This document shows positions 4,015 to 21,044 of a stretch of 64,000 bases of DNA, piece by piece. The notes under the pieces were generated by a model. It was not told the DNA's origin and searched no databases. It was given only the letters and a program-made list of their open reading frames with translations. Numbering within the stretch: position 1 is the stretch's first letter; each line of letters begins with the position of its first letter. Origin of the DNA: Escherichia virus TH15. Position numbers and translations under genes: made by a program. The stretch lies in sequence record MT446392.1. One strand, given 5' to 3'.

Positions 4015-5757
4015 TTAGCCAATGTCAATCCTCGAACCATCAATAGTATATTGTCCAGATGCAATAGAACTCATTGAAGCCATAGTCTCGGACCAAGCAC
4101 CTGCACAAGTCCAAGATACAGTACCATTTACAGTCCAGTTTAAATTACCATTAGTCGTGCGAGTTTCATTACCTTCTACTAAGGTAGTCGCATCACCCTT
4201 AACAGTAACATCAGCATTTCCTTCAACAATAACAGTAACGTTGCCTTTAACTCTGAGTGTTCCATTACCTTCTACAGTTTTCTCTTCGTTACCACGAATA
4301 TGGATGGTTTCGTTTCCATCGGTCTGACGACGAACGTTAGCCATATTGTAATAGGTTTCATCACCGCCAACGTTGACTTTATTATTACCACCGACATAAG
4401 TACTCGAATCGCCCTGGGTCATATAATAACCATCGGCTACCGTCTTCGAAGTCTTACGACCATCTGGTGCAACTTCCTCGTAGGAGCCAGTCGGGTGAAT
4501 CAGTCGATAACGTTCTTGCCCTGGAGTGTTATCGAATTCCTGAATATGTCCGCCTTCGGTTTGCATTGTCTGCACATAAGGATATTCGCCCTTGTAACTT
4601 GATTCTGGCTCTTTAAATAGAATCCTCGTATCTTCTGGAGTCCACGGGTCGGCCGGGTCAGAATTTGTAGGGGCCGCAAAGGTTTGAATCATCCTATATG
4701 AACGCCCTTTAAATTCCATTTCTTTAGGGGCCATTATACCATATGATTCCATATTACCGGTAAGGATAATCATTGATACCCTTGATGCACGCCCTTTAGT
4801 TTGGTTAAACCATACTGAATTACGAGCTTCCTCAAATGCCTTTTTATAATCGCCTATTAACATTGCACTAAGCATTCCACGGAATTTAGCAAGTCCACCT
4901 AATCCCATTTGGAAAGCCATGTTTTCAAGAGCCATTTGTCTCGAACGGTTTTCTTTATTGTAAACCGGACCTACAACACTATGCCTACCTATATCACTTT
5001 GTACTTTCTTAAGGTCTTCCTGGAATAATTTGGAAGCCTCGTCCATTGATATTGCGCCAGGGTTACCTTTAACTTCACGGCCTATTTGATTAGATAATAT
5101 TTTGTTTATCTGATTCATATCTCTAATAGGTTGTGGTGTAATAAGGTGGCCAATCCCGACAGTCGGATAACCTTCGGTGTCCCAATATACTTTCAGACGA
5201 AGCCCCTCATCACGGTGAAGCATATTTTCAATTGTGAAATTAGGGTTATCGTCTGGCTTAACCTGACTTAAATCAAGACCATCAGGGTTAATACCCAAAT
5301 CAAGGTTTGAATCCTGGATTACGTTTGAAGTGGCATCATAACCAACTTCACCCCCTCGGTTAAGCGCTGCAGCATCATTACCGACATAAAGTGGGTATTG
5401 TCCTGTGGGGTCAGAGAAACCTTCGTTAGGATTTGCTTTTTGCCTTGAGGCTGAACCGTATGTACCAATGACAAGACCGTTGAGCTTCCACTTGTCTAAA
5501 AAGTGACCATACACCTGAGTCCCTGGTACCATACCAGTCATGGCAGTTTGAATTCCAGAAACCGACGCAGATGATGTTGGCATCAGCACAGACATCCATG
5601 GTAGGTCTTCAGTTCTGATACCTTTTACAGGCCCTTGTGATTTCTCATATGGATGCATACCCCATACACGAACACGGACTCTACCTTGCTGAAGCGGGTC
5701 CATTCGGTCTTCAACCACACCGACGAACCAGCTTACACTATCTGACATATTAATCAT
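4015..5757 (-). CDS. 5: baseplate hub / tail lysozyme gp5
   Basis: 580 aa; central lysozyme-like segment (GYPTVGIGHLI, cf. T4 lysozyme [10 protein letters not shown]) and C-terminal VxGxxTxxVEGN beta-helix repeats. Confidence 0.85.
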   Translation of the reverse strand: MINMSDSVSWFVGVVEDRMDPLQQGRVRVRVWGMHPYEKSQGPVKGIRTEDLPWMSVLMPTSSASVSGIQTAMTGMVPGTQVYGHFLDKWKLNGLVIGTYGSASRQKANPNEGFSDPTGQYPLYVGNDAAALNRGGEVGYDATSNVIQDSNLDLGINPDGLDLSQVKPDDNPNFTIENMLHRDEGLRLKVYWDTEGYPTVGIGHLITPQPIRDMNQINKILSNQIGREVKGNPGAISMDEASKLFQEDLKKVQSDIGRHSVVGPVYNKENRSRQMALENMAFQMGLGGLAKFRGMLSAMLIGDYKKAFEEARNSVWFNQTKGRASRVSMIILTGNMESYGIMAPKEMEFKGRSYRMIQTFAAPTNSDPADPWTPEDTRILFKEPESSYKGEYPYVQTMQTEGGHIQEFDNTPGQERYRLIHPTGSYEEVAPDGRKTSKTVADGYYMTQGDSSTYVGGNNKVNVGGDETYYNMANVRRQTDGNETIHIRGNEEKTVEGNGTLRVKGNVTVIVEGNADVTVKGDATTLVEGNETRTTNGNLNWTVNGTVSWTCAGAWSETMASMSSIASGQYTIDGSRIDIG

Positions 5758-6386
5758 AGCGACTTCTCCATCTCACGAATAAGCGCCGAAATAAAAGATT
5801 CGATATCGTTAGGGTCGATTATCTTTATTTCTCGTTTGTATTCATTTTTGCGAATAGCATCTTCATAGATATCCACTGCGGCTAATGGACCTTCGTATTG
5901 TGGGTATAATTTGTTTTTATCGCCTTTATCGTACCAGGTGTATGGATTATCAGGATAAGAAACAAGGTTCCAGAATTTTTCACCATCTTCATTTACATGA
6001 TAAAGAACCTGATTGCCCCCGACATTCGAATATTTCTGAATTGATGCTTGATAAGATGCTTCTTGGGTACAAAGCCAACCATAATACGGGTCATAGATAT
6101 CATTGAGCATAAGGAGAACCCAATAGAGCTGAGTGTTGCCGTATAGCTGATATGCTAATTCTTCCGGGCGCGGAGCTCCGGCAATGTAATAGGTTTTTGG
6201 TGTATAATTGGCCGCGACTCTATCAAAGTAAGCACGATAATTTCTGAAGATGTCTGTCATTGGAATGCTTAAGACGTCTTCTTTCGTTAATGATGCCGAG
6301 TTTTTTCTGATTGTTTTAGCATCATAATCAATTGGGTTAAAAAATGAAAAAAGCATAAAGCCTCCATTTATAAATAAGTATATCAA
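5754..6386 (-). CDS. 53: baseplate wedge protein gp53
   Basis: 210-aa ORF upstream of gene 5 and divergent from gene 4, as in T4; true start may be the internal Met at 6356. Confidence 0.55.
   Translation of the reverse strand: MIYLFINGGFMLFSFFNPIDYDAKTIRKNSASLTKEDVLSIPMTDIFRNYRAYFDRVAANYTPKTYYIAGAPRPEELAYQLYGNTQLYWVLLMLNDIYDPYYGWLCTQEASYQASIQKYSNVGGNQVLYHVNEDGEKFWNLVSYPDNPYTWYDKGDKNKLYPQYEGPLAAVDIYEDAIRKNEYKREIKIIDPNDIESFISALIREMEKSL
6369..6376 (+). promoter_or_regulatory. putative late promoter TATAAATA upstream of gene 4
   Basis: Exact TATAAATA about 29 nt upstream of the gene 4 ATG, in the divergent 53/4 intergenic region. Confidence 0.4.
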
Positions 6387-14836: not shown

Positions 14837-14861
14837 AGGGGGTATACAAGCCCCCTGCTTT
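14837..14861 (+). terminator. hairpin terminator whose loop carries the -35 of the next promoter
   Basis: AGGGGG-TATACAAG-CCCCCT then GCTTT; loop contains GTATAC positioned 18 nt upstream of CATAAT (14866-14871). Confidence 0.5.
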
Positions 14862-15886: not shown

Positions 15887-15893
15887 GATAAAA

Positions 15894-15908
15894 GGGGGCT
15901 TTGCCCCC
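15894..15908 (+). terminator. GC-rich hairpin (weak terminator)
   Basis: GGGGGC-TTT-GCCCCC, no clear T-tract. Confidence 0.3.
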
Positions 15909-15929
15909 TAATTGGGAGAGGAGAATATT

Positions 15930-16484
15930 ATGACTTCATACGATAATCTTATATCAAATGTAGAATGGTTTGGCGGCAGTGGTCTTGCCACTGAAACTAA
16001 TACAGTTCTTTATAGAATCCGTGGTGACCTAGGTTATTCCAATGATTTCTTAAGAAGAACAACTAGTCGGGGCGATACTACCAAATTACCTTTTATTTTT
16101 GCTTTGGCTGAAGACCTTTCTTTCGCAGATGCCTTGGAAATTATTGACGTGAATCTGGGCATTCAACGAGTGGAATTCGCTGGACTACGTTATTCAGTGT
16201 ATGCATTAAACGACCCTAGCGATTATAGACAACTTATTGATGCAGACGATGATTATCATTTAGTGTGTTATTTGATGTTAGAAAATGGTGACCACTTTGG
16301 AATGGTTGACCGCCGTCCAACTTACTCTGATATTAAAAATTATGATAAAGATGAGCTTACTATTTTGGCTGCTGAGTATACATCAGAGAGTCGTAAGCAA
16401 CAACGGAAGCTTAATCGTTTTATTACTGAATGTCGTGAATATGCTAAAGGGGTTCAAAATGCGAACGCTATATCTGCCAAGTAA
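15930..16484 (+). CDS. hypothetical protein, C-terminal FITECR motif
   Basis: Start at ATG 15930 (track ORF begins at TTG 15912); SD gagaggag; C-terminal ...NRFITECREYAKG. Confidence 0.5.
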   Translation: MTSYDNLISNVEWFGGSGLATETNTVLYRIRGDLGYSNDFLRRTTSRGDTTKLPFIFALAEDLSFADALEIIDVNLGIQRVEFAGLRYSVYALNDPSDYRQLIDADDDYHLVCYLMLENGDHFGMVDRRPTYSDIKNYDKDELTILAAEYTSESRKQQRKLNRFITECREYAKGVQNANAISAK

Positions 16485-16818
16485 ACCAGAAAAATTTGTA
16501 TACGCGGACAAGATTGATAAAGACCTTATGCCTCCATTTGGAGCTTTGTCCATGTGCATCGTTGGGGTTATAATGATGGTGCTTTGTGGGGATATGGATA
16601 TCATTAGTGTCGGAGTCGCCTGGACACTAATAATCGCAACTCCTTTTATTACAGTCCTGAGTATGATTTTGATAAATGTGTGGCATCAAAATCATATGAA
16701 TAAAGGATATCGTGGACGAGTTAAAGAGTGGGAACAAAAATGTGTTTCCCTACAAAAAGAGCACAAAATTAAATGTGCAGAAGAATTTATCAAGGAGGTT
16801 CGCAATGGAACGGCCTAG
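16459..16818 (+). CDS. small membrane protein, C-terminal FIKEV motif
   Basis: Start at Met 59 of ORF 16285..16818 (MRTLYLP...), overlapping upstream stop; two hydrophobic segments. Confidence 0.45.
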   Translation: MRTLYLPSKPEKFVYADKIDKDLMPPFGALSMCIVGVIMMVLCGDMDIISVGVAWTLIIATPFITVLSMILINVWHQNHMNKGYRGRVKEWEQKCVSLQKEHKIKCAEEFIKEVRNGTA

Positions 16819-17158
16819 TCTTGCACTACATGTTTATCAATTGGCTGAATATGATATTGGTGCCAATTTATTATTAGGGATTGTTACCGCTATGCTCGGG
16901 GGCTTGGTTGGCCTGGTAATGACCACAGTTATGGCTGCAATCGAGGGAGTCATGCCTATTGAGATGGGCTTCTTTATGATAATTGCTCCGGCTGTTGTAG
17001 CCTATTTTATCCCGGTTGTGTATGATATCTGTCACACAAACACCTTGAATGCTCCCATCCGTAAGAGATACGCTTTGGCAATGGCTGAGTATAATAAGTT
17101 CCTGGACAAAACAAAACGTAATGAACTTGAAACCTTTATTAAGGAATGTAAATCATGA
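16805..17158 (+). CDS. small membrane protein, C-terminal FIKECKS motif
   Basis: Start at Met 32 of ORF 16712..17158 (MERPSLALH...); two hydrophobic segments; stop overlaps next ATG (ATGA). Confidence 0.45.
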   Translation: MERPSLALHVYQLAEYDIGANLLLGIVTAMLGGLVGLVMTTVMAAIEGVMPIEMGFFMIIAPAVVAYFIPVVYDICHTNTLNAPIRKRYALAMAEYNKFLDKTKRNELETFIKECKS

Positions 17159-17445
17159 ATAAAATTGAAATCGCTATCCCTAAGTATTATGATGAGAAAT
17201 CTGCAGAAAAAGCTATCTATTCTCTTCTAAATAAGACTTCTGAAATTGAAACACATTGTGAAGAAATCGCTGATGAATATGGCATTGAATTCAGCACCGG
17301 CGATTACGGCACAGGTCGTACATACCACCCAGTCGGTTATGAATGCTCTGAATGGTTTACCCATCATATTGAAGCCAATGGCGGTCGGGTTGAAAATGGT
17401 GTTGTTACCGTTGGTGCTTGGGTCTCCTCTTCTGAGATGTGTTAA
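17155..17445 (+). CDS. W-SSS-x-C family small protein, member 1 (ends ...GAWVSSSEMC)
   Basis: 96 aa; shares the EEIADxY N-terminal helix and W-V-S-S-S-E-x-C C-terminus with the four downstream ORFs. Confidence 0.55.
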   Translation: MNKIEIAIPKYYDEKSAEKAIYSLLNKTSEIETHCEEIADEYGIEFSTGDYGTGRTYHPVGYECSEWFTHHIEANGGRVENGVVTVGAWVSSSEMC

Positions 17446-17454
17446 GGAAATGGT

Positions 17455-17736
17455 ATGATGAACGATTACAGTAAAAATAAAGAACTGGCCAACGCAGTAA
17501 ACGAAATCCATAAAGCTATTCGGCGCGCCGAGGAAATTGCAGACAAATATGAGACTCATTTTAATATATACCCTGCTCGCGGTATGGGCGGTGACTATTA
17601 TTCTCCTGGCGCCTTGAAAGCTGACCTTGCTCATTGGGAAAACTACGGTGAAGCCCAATACGCCATTGTTAACCAACATGACTACACAACGGACCTTGAA
17701 AAAGGTGGTTGGGTTTCCTCTTCTTCTGAATGTTAA
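17455..17736 (+). CDS. W-SSS-x-C family small protein, member 2 (ends ...GGWVSSSSEC)
   Basis: 93 aa; tandem paralogue; stop followed by TAAGGAA SD of the next gene. Confidence 0.55.
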   Translation: MMNDYSKNKELANAVNEIHKAIRRAEEIADKYETHFNIYPARGMGGDYYSPGALKADLAHWENYGEAQYAIVNQHDYTTDLEKGGWVSSSSEC

Positions 17737-17744
17737 GGAATTAT

Positions 17745-17942
17745 ATGTCCCGTGAATTAGATTGTGCAATCCGTACTGCTGCGGCAGCTATTGAAAACGT
17801 TATCCAGATTTGCAAAGAAGAACGCGAAGAAGCTGATATCTATATTGACGGTCAGCGTAATCTGGAACAACATATTACGCTTTATAATGGTTGTATTACT
17901 ATTAGTGGTACCTCTTGGGTGTCCTCCTCTTACGAATGCTAA
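17745..17942 (+). CDS. W-SSS-x-C family small protein, member 3 (ends ...TSWVSSSYEC)
   Basis: Start at Met 6 of ORF 17730..17942 (SD aaggaa); tandem paralogue. Confidence 0.5.
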   Translation: MSRELDCAIRTAAAAIENVIQICKEEREEADIYIDGQRNLEQHITLYNGCITISGTSWVSSSYEC

Positions 17943-17950
17943 GGAAATAA

Positions 17951-18178
17951 ATGACTACTAAAACTGTTAAAGAAATTGAAGACCAAATCCGTGCACTAAT
18001 CTGTGAAGGTGAACAGCTGGCCGATAAAACTGGTGAATACTTTCATGTATATGCTGACAGTCTTCAACGATATATTCCTGCGGGCTGTCCAGAATATGAA
18101 GAATATGACTGGATTCGCGGTGATTATGGTATCCCAGAAGGTAAAGGTTTCTGGTACACCTCCTCTATGTCTTGCTAA
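17951..18178 (+). CDS. W-SSS-x-C family small protein, member 4 (ends ...FWYTSSMSC)
   Basis: 75 aa; tandem paralogue. Confidence 0.5.
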   Translation: MTTKTVKEIEDQIRALICEGEQLADKTGEYFHVYADSLQRYIPAGCPEYEEYDWIRGDYGIPEGKGFWYTSSMSC

Positions 18179-18187
18179 GGAATAAAA

Positions 18188-18412
18188 ATGTCTGATATTA
18201 ATGAATTAGAAAAAGCAGCTCTTGAACTGGCTGCGCTGTATAAGAAAGTTAAAGATATGGCTTCTGCTCAAGATTTCGGTATTGAGCTCGATGATTATGA
18301 TGGCGAAGTTCGTCTTGAAGACTGGTTGAACAGCTCTTGTTATGGTGAAGAAGCTGGTCGAACCTTCGTTGCTCACCCGGATGGTAAAATCTGGTACCCG
18401 AGCAGCTGCTAA
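18188..18412 (+). CDS. W-SSS-x-C family small protein, member 5 (ends ...KIWYPSSC)
   Basis: 74 aa; tandem paralogue, most divergent. Confidence 0.5.
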   Translation: MSDINELEKAALELAALYKKVKDMASAQDFGIELDDYDGEVRLEDWLNSSCYGEEAGRTFVAHPDGKIWYPSSC

Positions 18413-18456
18413 AATTATCACAAGGATGTGATAGGAGGACTTATGCACAAGATTTA

Positions 18457-18486
18457 GTATACAAGTCTAAAGAAACATAGTATCAT
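18457..18486 (+). promoter_or_regulatory. early promoter-like element: -35 GTATAC, -10 TATCAT
   Basis: 18-nt spacer; leader CTCGTCAACTAATGAGGAAA precedes the ATG at 18515. Confidence 0.4.
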
Positions 18487-18514
18487 TATCTCGTCAACTA
18501 ATGAGGAAATCAAT

Positions 18515-18745
18515 ATGTGGTATTACGCCCCAATGGCTGATGAGCCTGTGAAAATTAGTCGCGCTAAGTTTACAAAGATTTACGGCCTCGTTTATAAGAA
18601 GTCTGATTACGGTGTTCGTTTTGAAGATGCACACTGTATCAACGACCCTTATAATGAAGACCTCTATGGCAAATTGGTTCCTATCGTTAAGGGGTCCGCC
18701 TCTGAGATGATAGATGAATCTAATATCTCTGCTGCTGAAATTTAA
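18515..18745 (+). CDS. hypothetical protein
   Basis: 76-aa ORF with SD. Confidence 0.45.
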   Translation: MWYYAPMADEPVKISRAKFTKIYGLVYKKSDYGVRFEDAHCINDPYNEDLYGKLVPIVKGSASEMIDESNISAAEI

Positions 18746-18763: not shown

Positions 18764-19723
18764 ATGATGTTAGTTATTGGCTCTCGCGCATTACATAACG
18801 CCGGTCTGATTGAAAGTAAGAAAATTGAAAACTCTGATTGGGATTTTATCGCTGACCAGGGTTCCTGGAACAGCTTTAAAACCCAGATGATGGGGCAGCA
18901 TGTTCATGTGGATAACCCAGATGTGCAAGCTTTTAAATGTATGCACAATGGTAAAGAAACTTATTTTGAAGCGTACATCGTCCGCGCACTGACAAGTGTT
19001 CGTGAGTTGACTGATGAGTTGCAAGAGGAAGATTTTACTTCCAGTTATCGTCTGCTCAAATATGCAAAGGCAAATATTCAGAAAGACCGTCTATCTGGTT
19101 TTTACTGGGCGACCCCTGATATTTGTCTGGCAATTAAATTGTCTCATCGTTACCTGAAGAACAATCCATTCTTCCTGAAGACAATGAGCCATATTAATTA
19201 CCTTCGTAATAAGGGTGTTGTTCTTAATGATGAACTACAAAAAATCATGCAACAACGACAGGCAGAAACACTGTCATATAGTCACCCTAAACTAGACGTG
19301 GGCAAGAAAACTTTCTTTAATGATACAATCTATACCCTTGACCATGACTCCATCCACGAGGCCGTGGCGCTTGCTGATAAGCCTGCATATAAGTTCTATA
19401 TGAAGGATGATTCAGAAGTCATGACCTCACGTGAAAAATTTGAAGCACTCCCTGATGTTATTAAACTGGCAGGGGTTTATGAAGAAGCATGTGTGCTCGC
19501 TCTGGAGCGTTCGCAGGTTCCTAACGAGTTTAGTATCCCGGCCAGTCATAGCTTCCATATGGCTCTGGAAAAAGTCTGCACCTCCATTACTTCTGGATGG
19601 TTTCGTGAGTATGCCTGGGAACATTACCAGGATGTGGTTAATATGTACAACACCCTGGGTCGCGAAGACTATGTTAAACGTTTCAAGGCTAACCAGCATT
19701 TAATTCGTCCTTTTTCAAAATAA
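18764..19723 (+). CDS. Pol-beta-superfamily nucleotidyltransferase-like protein (function unknown)
   Basis: 319 aa; N-terminal VIGSRA ... SDWDF ... ETYFEAYIV arrangement fits the hG[GS]-x(9-13)-D-x-[DE] minimal NTase signature. Confidence 0.4.
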   Translation: MMLVIGSRALHNAGLIESKKIENSDWDFIADQGSWNSFKTQMMGQHVHVDNPDVQAFKCMHNGKETYFEAYIVRALTSVRELTDELQEEDFTSSYRLLKYAKANIQKDRLSGFYWATPDICLAIKLSHRYLKNNPFFLKTMSHINYLRNKGVVLNDELQKIMQQRQAETLSYSHPKLDVGKKTFFNDTIYTLDHDSIHEAVALADKPAYKFYMKDDSEVMTSREKFEALPDVIKLAGVYEEACVLALERSQVPNEFSIPASHSFHMALEKVCTSITSGWFREYAWEHYQDVVNMYNTLGREDYVKRFKANQHLIRPFSK

Positions 19724-19782: not shown

Positions 19783-20469
19783 ATGAACGGTCCTAAAACT
19801 TTTAATAGTCAAGCTCGTGCAGTTGGTGGTTTTGCACATAACGTACAAAATGACCAAATCAAAAATGAACCAATGTTCTTTAACTGTGATTTGAGTTTTG
19901 CTTGGGATAATGGTGGTCCAATCACTCGTAGCTTTATTGCCAATCTCCCAATTGATTGGACTAATCAACATGTTGTGTTTGATTCACGTGCGCATATGTT
20001 AATGCCAGGTTGGTATCCAGCTATCCCTGGCTATCATCATGATGATGTTCCTCGTCCACCCATTCCAACAGGACAACATTTTATTACTGCAGGACAACCT
20101 GATTATGACAATCCTCGCTATTTGTCTGAACACATTCTTGGTCTTGTTAACGCTGATGTGTGCCCTACCCATTTTGCTACAGGCGAAGCCACCTTTAGTG
20201 AAATCCCAGAAGGTGAACTGATTTATCGCCAATGGCATAAAGAAGTTCTGGCTAAAATTGAATCAGGTGAATTAGAGCAATGGGAAGCTCCTGACCGCAC
20301 ACTCCTGCAGTTTAATTGTCATACCTGGCATACTGGTTCCCAGACAGTGCGCAATGGCTGGCGTTGGTTTGGTCGTGTATCTCGTAACACTGACCGTGTT
20401 AAAAATATTACCAATGAAATCCGCGTTAATGCCCAAGTATATCTGGAATTCCCTATGGAGGGATGGTAA
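19783..20469 (+). CDS. hypothetical protein
   Basis: 228-aa ORF with SD gaggaaaa. Confidence 0.5.
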   Translation: MNGPKTFNSQARAVGGFAHNVQNDQIKNEPMFFNCDLSFAWDNGGPITRSFIANLPIDWTNQHVVFDSRAHMLMPGWYPAIPGYHHDDVPRPPIPTGQHFITAGQPDYDNPRYLSEHILGLVNADVCPTHFATGEATFSEIPEGELIYRQWHKEVLAKIESGELEQWEAPDRTLLQFNCHTWHTGSQTVRNGWRWFGRVSRNTDRVKNITNEIRVNAQVYLEFPMEGW

Positions 20470-21044
20470 TGATGTATGAACCCGGTTGCATGGGTGATAT
20501 GAAAGGTCCACAAGGATGTGCAGGTATTCCAGTTCCAAGAGATGAATTTATGATTACCAAAAGATATTGGGCAAACCTTGATGATGGTGATGAAGGAATC
20601 AAGGTGGAAAACGTTGATTGGTCGCACTGTAACCGTCATATGAAAGAGCTTTTGATTGAGGAATATAAAATGAAGCACATCGTTAAAGGTTGGCAACCAG
20701 AACCACATAAAGAACAAACACCTGACCCATTGATTTGTTATAGTGAAAAATATGGTTTTCGTACATGGAGCGATGAATATGACAAGTTGGTGTGCTCCAG
20801 GTTCTATGTTTGGATGGGAATACTATTTTTTCCAATCCTGTGGTTTTTCCTGACAACGAAAAATGACTTGCCAATTTGCGTATTCGGGGCAGCAGTATCT
20901 GCGGCCATTGCAGGTATTATCGCATCATTTTTGTGGACCTCTGTTATTGAAGTACCTTTTCGTATTTCTAAAGTTAAAAAGGTATATGACAATATCACAA
21001 AGAAAAATACATTAAACTCTTTTATTGAGGAATGTCGTAAATGA
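20463..21044 (+). CDS. membrane protein, C-terminal FIEECRK motif
   Basis: 193 aa; two C-terminal hydrophobic segments; tail matches the FIxEC family at 15930-17158; stop overlaps next ATG. Confidence 0.5.
   Translation: MVMMYEPGCMGDMKGPQGCAGIPVPRDEFMITKRYWANLDDGDEGIKVENVDWSHCNRHMKELLIEEYKMKHIVKGWQPEPHKEQTPDPLICYSEKYGFRTWSDEYDKLVCSRFYVWMGILFFPILWFFLTTKNDLPICVFGAAVSAAIAGIIASFLWTSVIEVPFRISKVKKVYDNITKKNTLNSFIEECRK

Follow-up and report, generated by a model that had tools for sequence, protein, structure and literature searches.

The DNA analysed is a stretch of 64,000 nucleotides from Escherichia virus TH15 (sequence record MT446392.1), hereafter called the window, in which five small-protein genes lie in an array at positions 17155-18412, followed on the same strand by a gene for a predicted nucleotidyltransferase. 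As the initial annotation had noticed, the array consists of five consecutive + strand open reading frames (ORFs) sharing a helix and a tail that ends in cysteine, which was borne out from the sequence. The lengths of 96, 93, 75 and 74 amino acids (aa) assigned there to four of the products stand; the third, put at 66 aa, has 65 aa when started from the ATG that follows a ribosome-binding site (another ATG, at 17730, would give 70 aa). The features are listed below with isoelectric points (pI), matches to PHROGs and whole-gene ratios of non-synonymous to synonymous change (dN/dS).

17155..17445, + strand: paralogue 1, 96 aa, pI 4.6, core type (…EEIADEYGIEF…GDYGTGRTYHP…GAWVSSSEMC); phrog_899 match, E 2e-22; dN/dS 0.13
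17455..17736, + strand: paralogue 2, 93 aa, pI 5.0, core type (…EEIADKYETHF…RGMGGDYYSP…GGWVSSSSEC); phrog_899 match, E 1.3e-21; dN/dS 0.23
17745..17942, + strand: paralogue 3, 65 aa, divergent short type (…SWVSSSYEC), lacking the Gly-rich Tyr loop; phrog_4882 match, E 2.9e-36; dN/dS 0.10
17951..18178, + strand: paralogue 4, 75 aa, core type with a variable middle (…EQLADKTGEYF…YIP…GFWYTSSMSC); phrog_899 match, E 1.5e-15; dN/dS 0.34
18188..18412, + strand: paralogue 5, 74 aa, double-motif type with internal DWLNSSCYGEE and terminal IWYPSSC, no TAAGGAA following it; phrog_899 match, E 6e-10; dN/dS 0.10
17443..17449, + strand: TAAGGAA junction joining the stop codon of paralogue 1 to the Shine-Dalgarno sequence of paralogue 2, read from the sequence
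17734-17740, 17940-17946 and 18176-18182, + strand: further, identical TAAGGAA junctions, read from the sequence
18764..19723, + strand: partner gene, 319 aa, DUF7277 (N-terminal) and DUF7275 (C-terminal), predicted nucleotidyltransferase of the polymerase beta (pol-beta) fold (G6 S7 … D25 x D27 … E69)

All five small proteins are acidic (pI 4.3-5.0), a helix ending E-x-[IL]-A-D-[EK] is present in the array proteins, and the tails of paralogues 1 to 5 (AWVSSSEMC, GWVSSSSEC, SWVSSSYEC, FWYTSSMSC and KIWYPSSC) give the consensus W-x-x-S-S-(x-x)-C-COOH, with Cys as the last residue in 5/5; in paralogue 2 it is the sole Cys. Of the 349 open frames in the window with 60 codons or more, 12 have a terminal Cys, and the tail motif was found only in the five array genes. 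The AlphaFold2 model of paralogue 1 (mean predicted local distance difference test, pLDDT, 85.8) has a predicted long helix at residues 14-42 followed by a small beta unit or sheet, with a lower pLDDT for the tail than for the core. Neither promoters nor terminators were detected within the array above shuffled expectation, and the gap at 18413-18514 gave no structured RNA signal (z-score -1.0).

As four of the five junctions are identical, the shared C-terminus might be a nucleotide by-product of the stop and ribosome-binding junction TAAGGAA, or the ORFs might not be real genes. This explanation, to which we assign a practically negligible probability, was refuted by a codon comparison of six phages (the window, VR7, MN01, IME281, dhaeg and SP18). 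The junction spans only the stop codon and bases downstream of it. Over the last eight codons synonymous changes were frequent, with zero non-synonymous changes in paralogues 2 and 3, and in the orthologues of paralogue 5 serine codons were swapped between AGC or AGT and TCA; whole-gene dN/dS, calculated for the window against the five related phages, was 0.10-0.34. The motif was also retained where the junction is absent, namely in paralogue 5, which never carries TAAGGAA in any of the six phages, and in MN01, where TAATATG replaces it after paralogue 1, and the motif is therefore independent of the junction. In addition, nearly all of the 74 representative clusters found for the family were matched up to their last residues. 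The tail motif is thus under selection at the protein level, as the initial annotation had argued from synonymous variation, and the C-terminal similarity is not accounted for by shared junction nucleotides. Its description of the locus as diversifying proved inapt, since across Dhakavirus and Gaprivervirus each of the five paralogues has its 1:1 orthologue and evolves under purifying selection.

The small proteins form a real paralogous family, as had been proposed, with profile matches to phrog_899 (paralogues 1, 2, 4 and 5) and phrog_4882 (paralogue 3), both labelled as of unknown function. The paralogue 3 type was joined to the core family by hhalign (probability 92.6%, E 4.6e-7); support was weaker for the paralogue 5 type (E 3.4e-4), which nevertheless matches phrog_899 as listed above. 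When 1.84 billion representative proteins were scanned exhaustively with HMMER (E<=1e-3), just 74 representatives were returned, all of 71-136 aa; a word-indexed homologue search yielded only about 30 close relatives and was too insensitive for such short proteins. The whole-family alignment contains no conserved block of 7-10 residues, and the locus search was therefore seeded from a sub-alignment. The core type, which is the commonest, has a long helix ending [AE]-E-x-[IL]-A-D-[EK]-x-G-[VI]-x-F, then a Gly-rich loop, (A)YG(M/S)GG(R)TYYP, a linker that is acidic and rich in Trp and Ser, and the tail G-x-W-[VIL]-S-S-S-x-x-C-COOH. The other subtypes are the short type (paralogue 3), the double-motif type (paralogue 5, DW-x-S-S-C-Y-G-E … W-x-x-S-S-C), in which two Cys, C51 and C74, are invariant, and forms of 140-170 aa with extra N-terminal domains. 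All subtypes have in common no more than the helix and the tail W-x-x-S-S-(x-x)-C, which points to the tail, rather than the Tyr loop, as the family-defining functional element. The Cys is exactly terminal in 180/191 unique family ORFs, and 98% of members have a pI below 5.5 (median 4.26). As the terminal Cys is the only Cys in 69/150 members, an intramolecular disulfide cannot be its general role.

This family is old and widespread. Homologues were found in several lineages of Straboviridae (Tevenvirinae, Tulanevirus, Twarogvirinae), in Phapecoctavirus and Otagovirus and in an Erwinia jumbo phage, and paralogue 2 alone was found in 281 phage records (tblastn). The core and double-motif subtypes coexist in most lineages, including Aeromonas phages, Phapecoctavirus and T-even phages; the double-motif subtype was seen in Aeromonas phage 25, Phapecoctavirus and others. 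The window belongs to a T-even phage of the Gaprivervirus/Dhakavirus kind; its array region is about 90% identical to VR7, VR25 and TH55, and the array corresponds to VR7 ORF142c-138c, after e.3 and upstream of e.2. In T4, e.3 and e.2 are adjacent and the array is absent from this syntenic junction, and neither the small-protein family nor the downstream enzyme was found in T4 bases 1-80,000, consistent with the accessory nature first ascribed to the locus.

The link between array and enzyme was first seen in a distant metagenomic phage contig, where two paralogues are followed immediately by a homologue of the 319-aa ORF. Arrays lie directly upstream of the enzyme gene in the window, VR7, the metagenomic phage, Pseudomonas phage PN09 (an Otagovirus, with up to five members), the jumbo phage Kaldavass of Erwinia, Phapecoctavirus 536P1, Aeromonas phage 25, Acinetobacter phage AM101 and Providencia phage PSTCR6. 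In an enzyme-centred sample of 80 IMG/VR loci, at least one small-protein member was present within about 3 kb upstream in 74 (73 by motif scan, plus L058, missed there by a length cut-off), with 0 to 6 copies per locus. The tail motif gave 216 matches on the strand of the enzyme and 0 on the opposite strand, nearly all of them within the 3 kb upstream. When the enzymes were clustered at 70% identity, arrays accompanied 40 of the 42 clusters; for one of the other two the upstream sequence is too short to judge, leaving 40/41 informative. In a reciprocal test seeded solely on the small-protein pattern YGMGGTY (39 loci), 37/37 informative loci had the enzyme gene on the same strand within 1.6 kb downstream, the other two contigs ending at the array. 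Clustering of all neighbouring genes revealed no third universal component, and no other gene family was comparably co-located with the array. Array and nucleotidyltransferase thus constitute a conserved phage module of two gene families; to judge from our searches, such near-obligate coupling of the family with a MenT-like nucleotidyltransferase has not been described before. What lies between the two varies: the window carries an ORF of 76 aa (18515..18745, + strand; phrog_3723, unknown function) that is lineage-specific and outside the conserved module, and other phages have different genes there or none.

These data also bear on the explanation that the small proteins act on the host as independent effectors (anti-defence or host-takeover inhibitors, which might be nucleic-acid mimics), sharing an ancient operon with the enzyme without acting on or with it and engaging a host target through the Cys tail; the initial annotation had called such a locus typical of host-takeover or anti-defence genes. 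Such a role, which we consider rather unlikely while giving it real weight, would suit their small size and very acidic character, their position in an early accessory region that differs between T-even phages, the failure to find them in T4 bases 1-80,000, the variation in copy number, and the persistence of the enzyme without an array in a few lineages. Order, strand and adjacency are, however, kept across phage groups whose neighbouring genes are otherwise unrelated, the presence of the enzyme at every informative small-protein locus is hard to explain if the proteins act autonomously, and known mimics were matched neither in PADLOC nor by fold searches. Resemblance to Ocr, Arn and ArdA, likewise small, strongly acidic products of early accessory genes in lytic phages, does not extend to fold or sequence, and neither the terminal Cys tail nor the obligate enzyme neighbour has a counterpart there.

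The product of the partner gene is predicted to be a pol-beta-fold nucleotidyltransferase of the MenT/AbiEii/aminoglycoside-nucleotidyltransferase kind, because of its invariant residues and its fold matches. The catalytic residues G6-S7, D25-x-D27 and E69 are intact: they show no variation among 34 homologues and reach at least 95% conservation in a set of 74, so that an hG[GS] … [DE]x[DE] … third-acidic signature is carried on a pol-beta core. The best PDB folds for the AlphaFold2 model (pLDDT 91.4) were MenT1, ANT(2''), TglT, MenT4 and LnuA, and TM1012 was also matched. By sequence the enzyme is not DUF1814, and no Pfam match to RlaP or CCA-adding families was obtained. It is present in 731 phage records, where some depositors have labelled it 'putative nucleotidyltransferase', and is essentially absent from plasmids (3/72,556 records, C-terminal domain only). 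Its cellular target is most plausibly RNA or tRNA 3' ends. An RNA-end function is plausible rather than established, since a tRNA gene lies within 5 kb in only 11/60 loci; a strong association of the module with tRNA genes was dropped on the same count.

The C-terminal domain is densely conserved in the 34-sequence alignment (H128, H174, D193-H194-D195, H198, C243, C272 and …TSITSGWFRE…), and the enzymes of an array-less clade, represented by L062, differ at D193 (Q/E), Y209 (F) and W279 (R), positions that are otherwise at least 95% conserved. The conservation of C272, H128, H174, D193, H194, D195 and H198, together with the invariant terminal Cys, the invariant C51 and C74 of the double-motif subtype and the coexistence of this subtype with the core type in most lineages, would agree with the small proteins being structural or cofactor subunits, the terminal Cys of several subunits and the invariant Cys/His of DUF7275 jointly binding a metal or redox centre on which the enzyme would depend. 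The 69/150 single-Cys members, though, have no recognisable metal-binding fold or second ligand, and array-less enzymes retain C272, which makes this arrangement improbable.

Searches for known relatives agreed with the initial description of the family as an unrecognised one. No family was matched in Pfam or NCBIfam scans of the five proteins, none of the five matched a PADLOC-DB defence or anti-defence profile at E<=1, neither a single protein nor a 76-sequence profile retrieved a relative from the sequences of the PDB, and Foldseek against BFVD returned only uncharacterised members of the same family. Nothing relevant was found in the literature on phrog_899, DUF7275/DUF7277, the WVSSS motif, phage MenT-like enzymes or C-terminal-cysteine small proteins. 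PHROGs 899 and 4882 split the family in two and record neither the tail motif nor the linkage to the enzyme. Particular classes were likewise set aside. The five N-termini (MNKIEIAIP…, MMNDYSK…, MSRELD…, MTTKTVKE… and MSDINELE…) lack the MKTYQEFIAE-type capsid-targeting sequence of T4-type internal head proteins, genuine examples of which begin MKTYKEFIAE in neighbouring loci, and this assignment is also disfavoured by the occurrence of the family in non-T4 phages. Ubiquitin-like or sulfur-carrier proteins were rejected because there was no beta-grasp match, the tail ends in Cys rather than Gly-Gly, and the partner has a predicted pol-beta rather than an E1-like fold.

Peptides that form aminovinyl-cysteine (AviCys) have a C-terminal Cys with a Ser three residues upstream (S-x-x-C), which the present tail recalls. 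The small proteins could accordingly be pictured as scaffolds or precursors whose Ser/Cys tail is chemically processed in the manner of ribosomally synthesised and post-translationally modified peptides (RiPPs), for example by Ser activation followed by thioether or aminovinyl-cysteine-type chemistry, or is cleaved off to release a product. Several precursor paralogues beside one enzyme, and a tail that is the only universally conserved segment, would fit such a scheme. We nevertheless regard it as highly improbable: the neighbouring genes include no conserved dehydratase, flavin decarboxylase, radical-SAM enzyme or protease, the S-x-x-C spacing is lost in the short variant W-x-x-S-S-C, and the body is a folded conserved domain in which the would-be core, the tail, is invariant rather than variable. 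Precursors of the AviCys type in particular were rejected since, despite the Ser and terminal Cys, no flavoprotein decarboxylase of the LanD type and no dehydratase is conserved nearby and the nucleotidyltransferase alone is.

The reading that we tentatively prefer is that the five genes may encode partner proteins of the nucleotidyltransferase, as substrates or regulators, forming with it a conserved two-part module. We infer that the acidic body of each small protein would dock on the enzyme and the tail would reach into the catalytic centre, as acceptor or as plug; this fits the acidity of the bodies, a Ser-Ser-(x-x)-Cys-COOH tail that is flexible yet invariant, and the placement of the genes upstream. 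As an acceptor, the hydroxyl group of a tail Ser or the thiol of the Cys would take a nucleotide, much as MntA AMPylates HepT; as a plug or regulator, the tail would block the enzyme, as the 68-aa MenA1 blocks the MenT1 cleft. The coexistence in one genome of anciently diverged subtypes (core, short and double-motif) would suggest non-redundant partners with different specificities or outputs, rather than a one-to-one antitoxin. Several points weigh against this proposal. Synteny alone cannot tell 'works with' from 'co-transcribed with', the 2-6 diverged paralogues per enzyme are unlike a simple toxin-antitoxin pair, and the small proteins showed no likeness in sequence or fold to known antitoxins or nucleotidyltransferase substrates. 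Moreover, the enzyme occurs without an adjacent array in the L062 clade and at L038, and distant actinophage and Vibrio homologues of the enzyme also have no array beside them.

Known nucleotidyltransferase systems offer partial parallels for such a partnership. In HepT-MntA, a type VII toxin-antitoxin system, the pol-beta enzyme MntA AMPylates its partner HepT, a HEPN RNase, on Tyr. There too a pol-beta enzyme is paired with a partner protein, and covalent modification of the partner serves as the model for the acceptor version; the phage partners, however, are tiny acidic proteins with a Ser/Cys tail rather than a HEPN RNase, and their modification is hypothetical. MenA1, a short (68 aa) helical protein encoded next to MenT1, blocks the electropositive active-site cleft of that enzyme (PMC10435456). 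MenA1 of the Mycobacterium tuberculosis MenAT1 system has no likeness in sequence or fold to the phage small proteins, and one antitoxin there stands against 1-6 diverged paralogues with an invariant W-x-x-S-S-(x-x)-C-COOH tail in the phage module, which is restricted to lytic phages and whose enzyme is DUF7277/DUF7275, not DUF1814, by sequence. A broader likeness to MenA/AbiEi antitoxins was rejected, as the small proteins match neither the helical V of MenA1 nor COG5340 (MenA3/AbiEi) in sequence or structure. Finally, RlaP and CCA-adding pol-beta enzymes of large phages are thought to restore RNA 3' ends, and a jumbo-phage survey of these does not include the present family (PMC7824862). The phage module is sometimes found near tRNA genes, an RNA ligase or a polynucleotide kinase, but RlaP and CCA-adding enzymes have no small Cys-tailed partners.

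A more specific form of the acceptor version would make the small proteins encoded acceptors, the enzyme adding nucleotides to the Ser/Cys tails of acidic carriers that possibly mimic the tRNA acceptor, with several carriers per enzyme; this would be a new class of protein-nucleotide conjugate acting in phage-host conflict. We consider it unlikely. If true, the conjugates might serve as decoys or inhibitors for tRNA-targeting host defences, or as primers for a signalling or blocking oligonucleotide.

The module is carried by T4-like phages of Escherichia, Klebsiella, Enterobacter, Serratia, Yersinia, Aeromonas and Acinetobacter, as well as by Phapecoctavirus, Pseudomonas Otagovirus and jumbo phages. 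Although candidates for therapy are numerous among them, the module has received no study at all, and that it was not found in T4 bases 1-80,000 is one likely reason. An invariant Cys as the last residue of a folded cytoplasmic protein is unusual, and there would be a real chance of something categorically new if the tail were covalently modified. Should the enzyme modify the small proteins or be controlled by them, the partner logic of MenAT, AbiE and HepT-MntA would extend from bacterial toxin-antitoxin systems to lytic phages, and a new protein modification or a new route of counter-defence could emerge. The linkage also gives context to PHROGs 899 and 4882 and to Pfam DUF7275 and DUF7277, and allows scattered misannotations to be corrected. 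In GenBank records MW250787.1, MK295203.1 and MZ571829.1 and in the cluster of P0120 the module genes are evidently misnamed, the small proteins as 'tail completion protein' or 'major capsid protein' and the enzyme as 'prohead assembly scaffold protein'.

Some further observations were made on individual loci. In PSTCR6 (MW057858.1; from 4926 in L004 to about 750 in L094) the enzyme gene is intact but lacks an annotation because the origin of the circular record falls within it. In relatives from Dhakavirus and Gaprivervirus (L010-L013, about 2195-2805 in each), the interval from paralogue 5 to the enzyme holds additional genes that are absent from the window, encoding a basic protein of 75 aa (MLKLKKRYIRK…) and a His-rich protein of 109 aa (…HHHMYHTH…), the latter not in MN01 (L010). 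The array-less clade comprises L062, L064, L068 and L090 (enzyme at about 5001-5930), and in L068 the gene is split by a frameshift. At L038 (3615-4567), a T4-like contig, seven tRNA genes fill the upstream position usual for the array. Shorter enzyme homologues (250-264 aa) were found in Gordonia, Streptomyces and Vibrio phages (L136 1974-3606, L137 2878-4328 and L138 2818-3973), with no Cys-tailed proteins upstream and with one or two paralogous small acidic proteins immediately downstream that belong to a different family (…GGGEG.GE..W.V..IGD..F.K.GYY.S.DG..WDG…); their neighbours are, respectively, a cluster of 5 tRNA genes, an RNA ligase and a DNA ligase. T4 nrdC.11 (L135 5435-6445), which carries a nucleotidyltransferase annotation, encodes a different pol-beta nucleotidyltransferase (YGSHLYG…DVDF) that is putatively RlaP-like by its N-terminal motif and has no match to the DUF7277/7275 profile.

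Around the module in the window, the enzyme gene is directly followed by an ORF of 228 aa (19783-20469; phrog_1843, unknown function, no Pfam match), which is co-located in 23 T4-like loci only and whose GYHHDD…H might indicate a metal-dependent oxygenase fold, judging by the sequence; VR7 has ORF135c after the enzyme, a gene absent from the window. The module is flanked by predicted membrane proteins resembling e.4, e.3 and e.2 (16285-16818, 16712-17158 and 20463-21044), whose C-termini resemble one another (…EEFIKEVRNGTA, …ETFIKECKS and …NSFIEECRK), and in the e.3-like gene the codons for I-K-E-C contain the TAAGGAA ribosome-binding site of paralogue 1. Upstream of the array, two intergenic G+C-rich hairpins (AGGGGGC…GCCCCCT) are present at 14837-14856 and 15893-15909, both terminator-like on the - strand by consensus scan.

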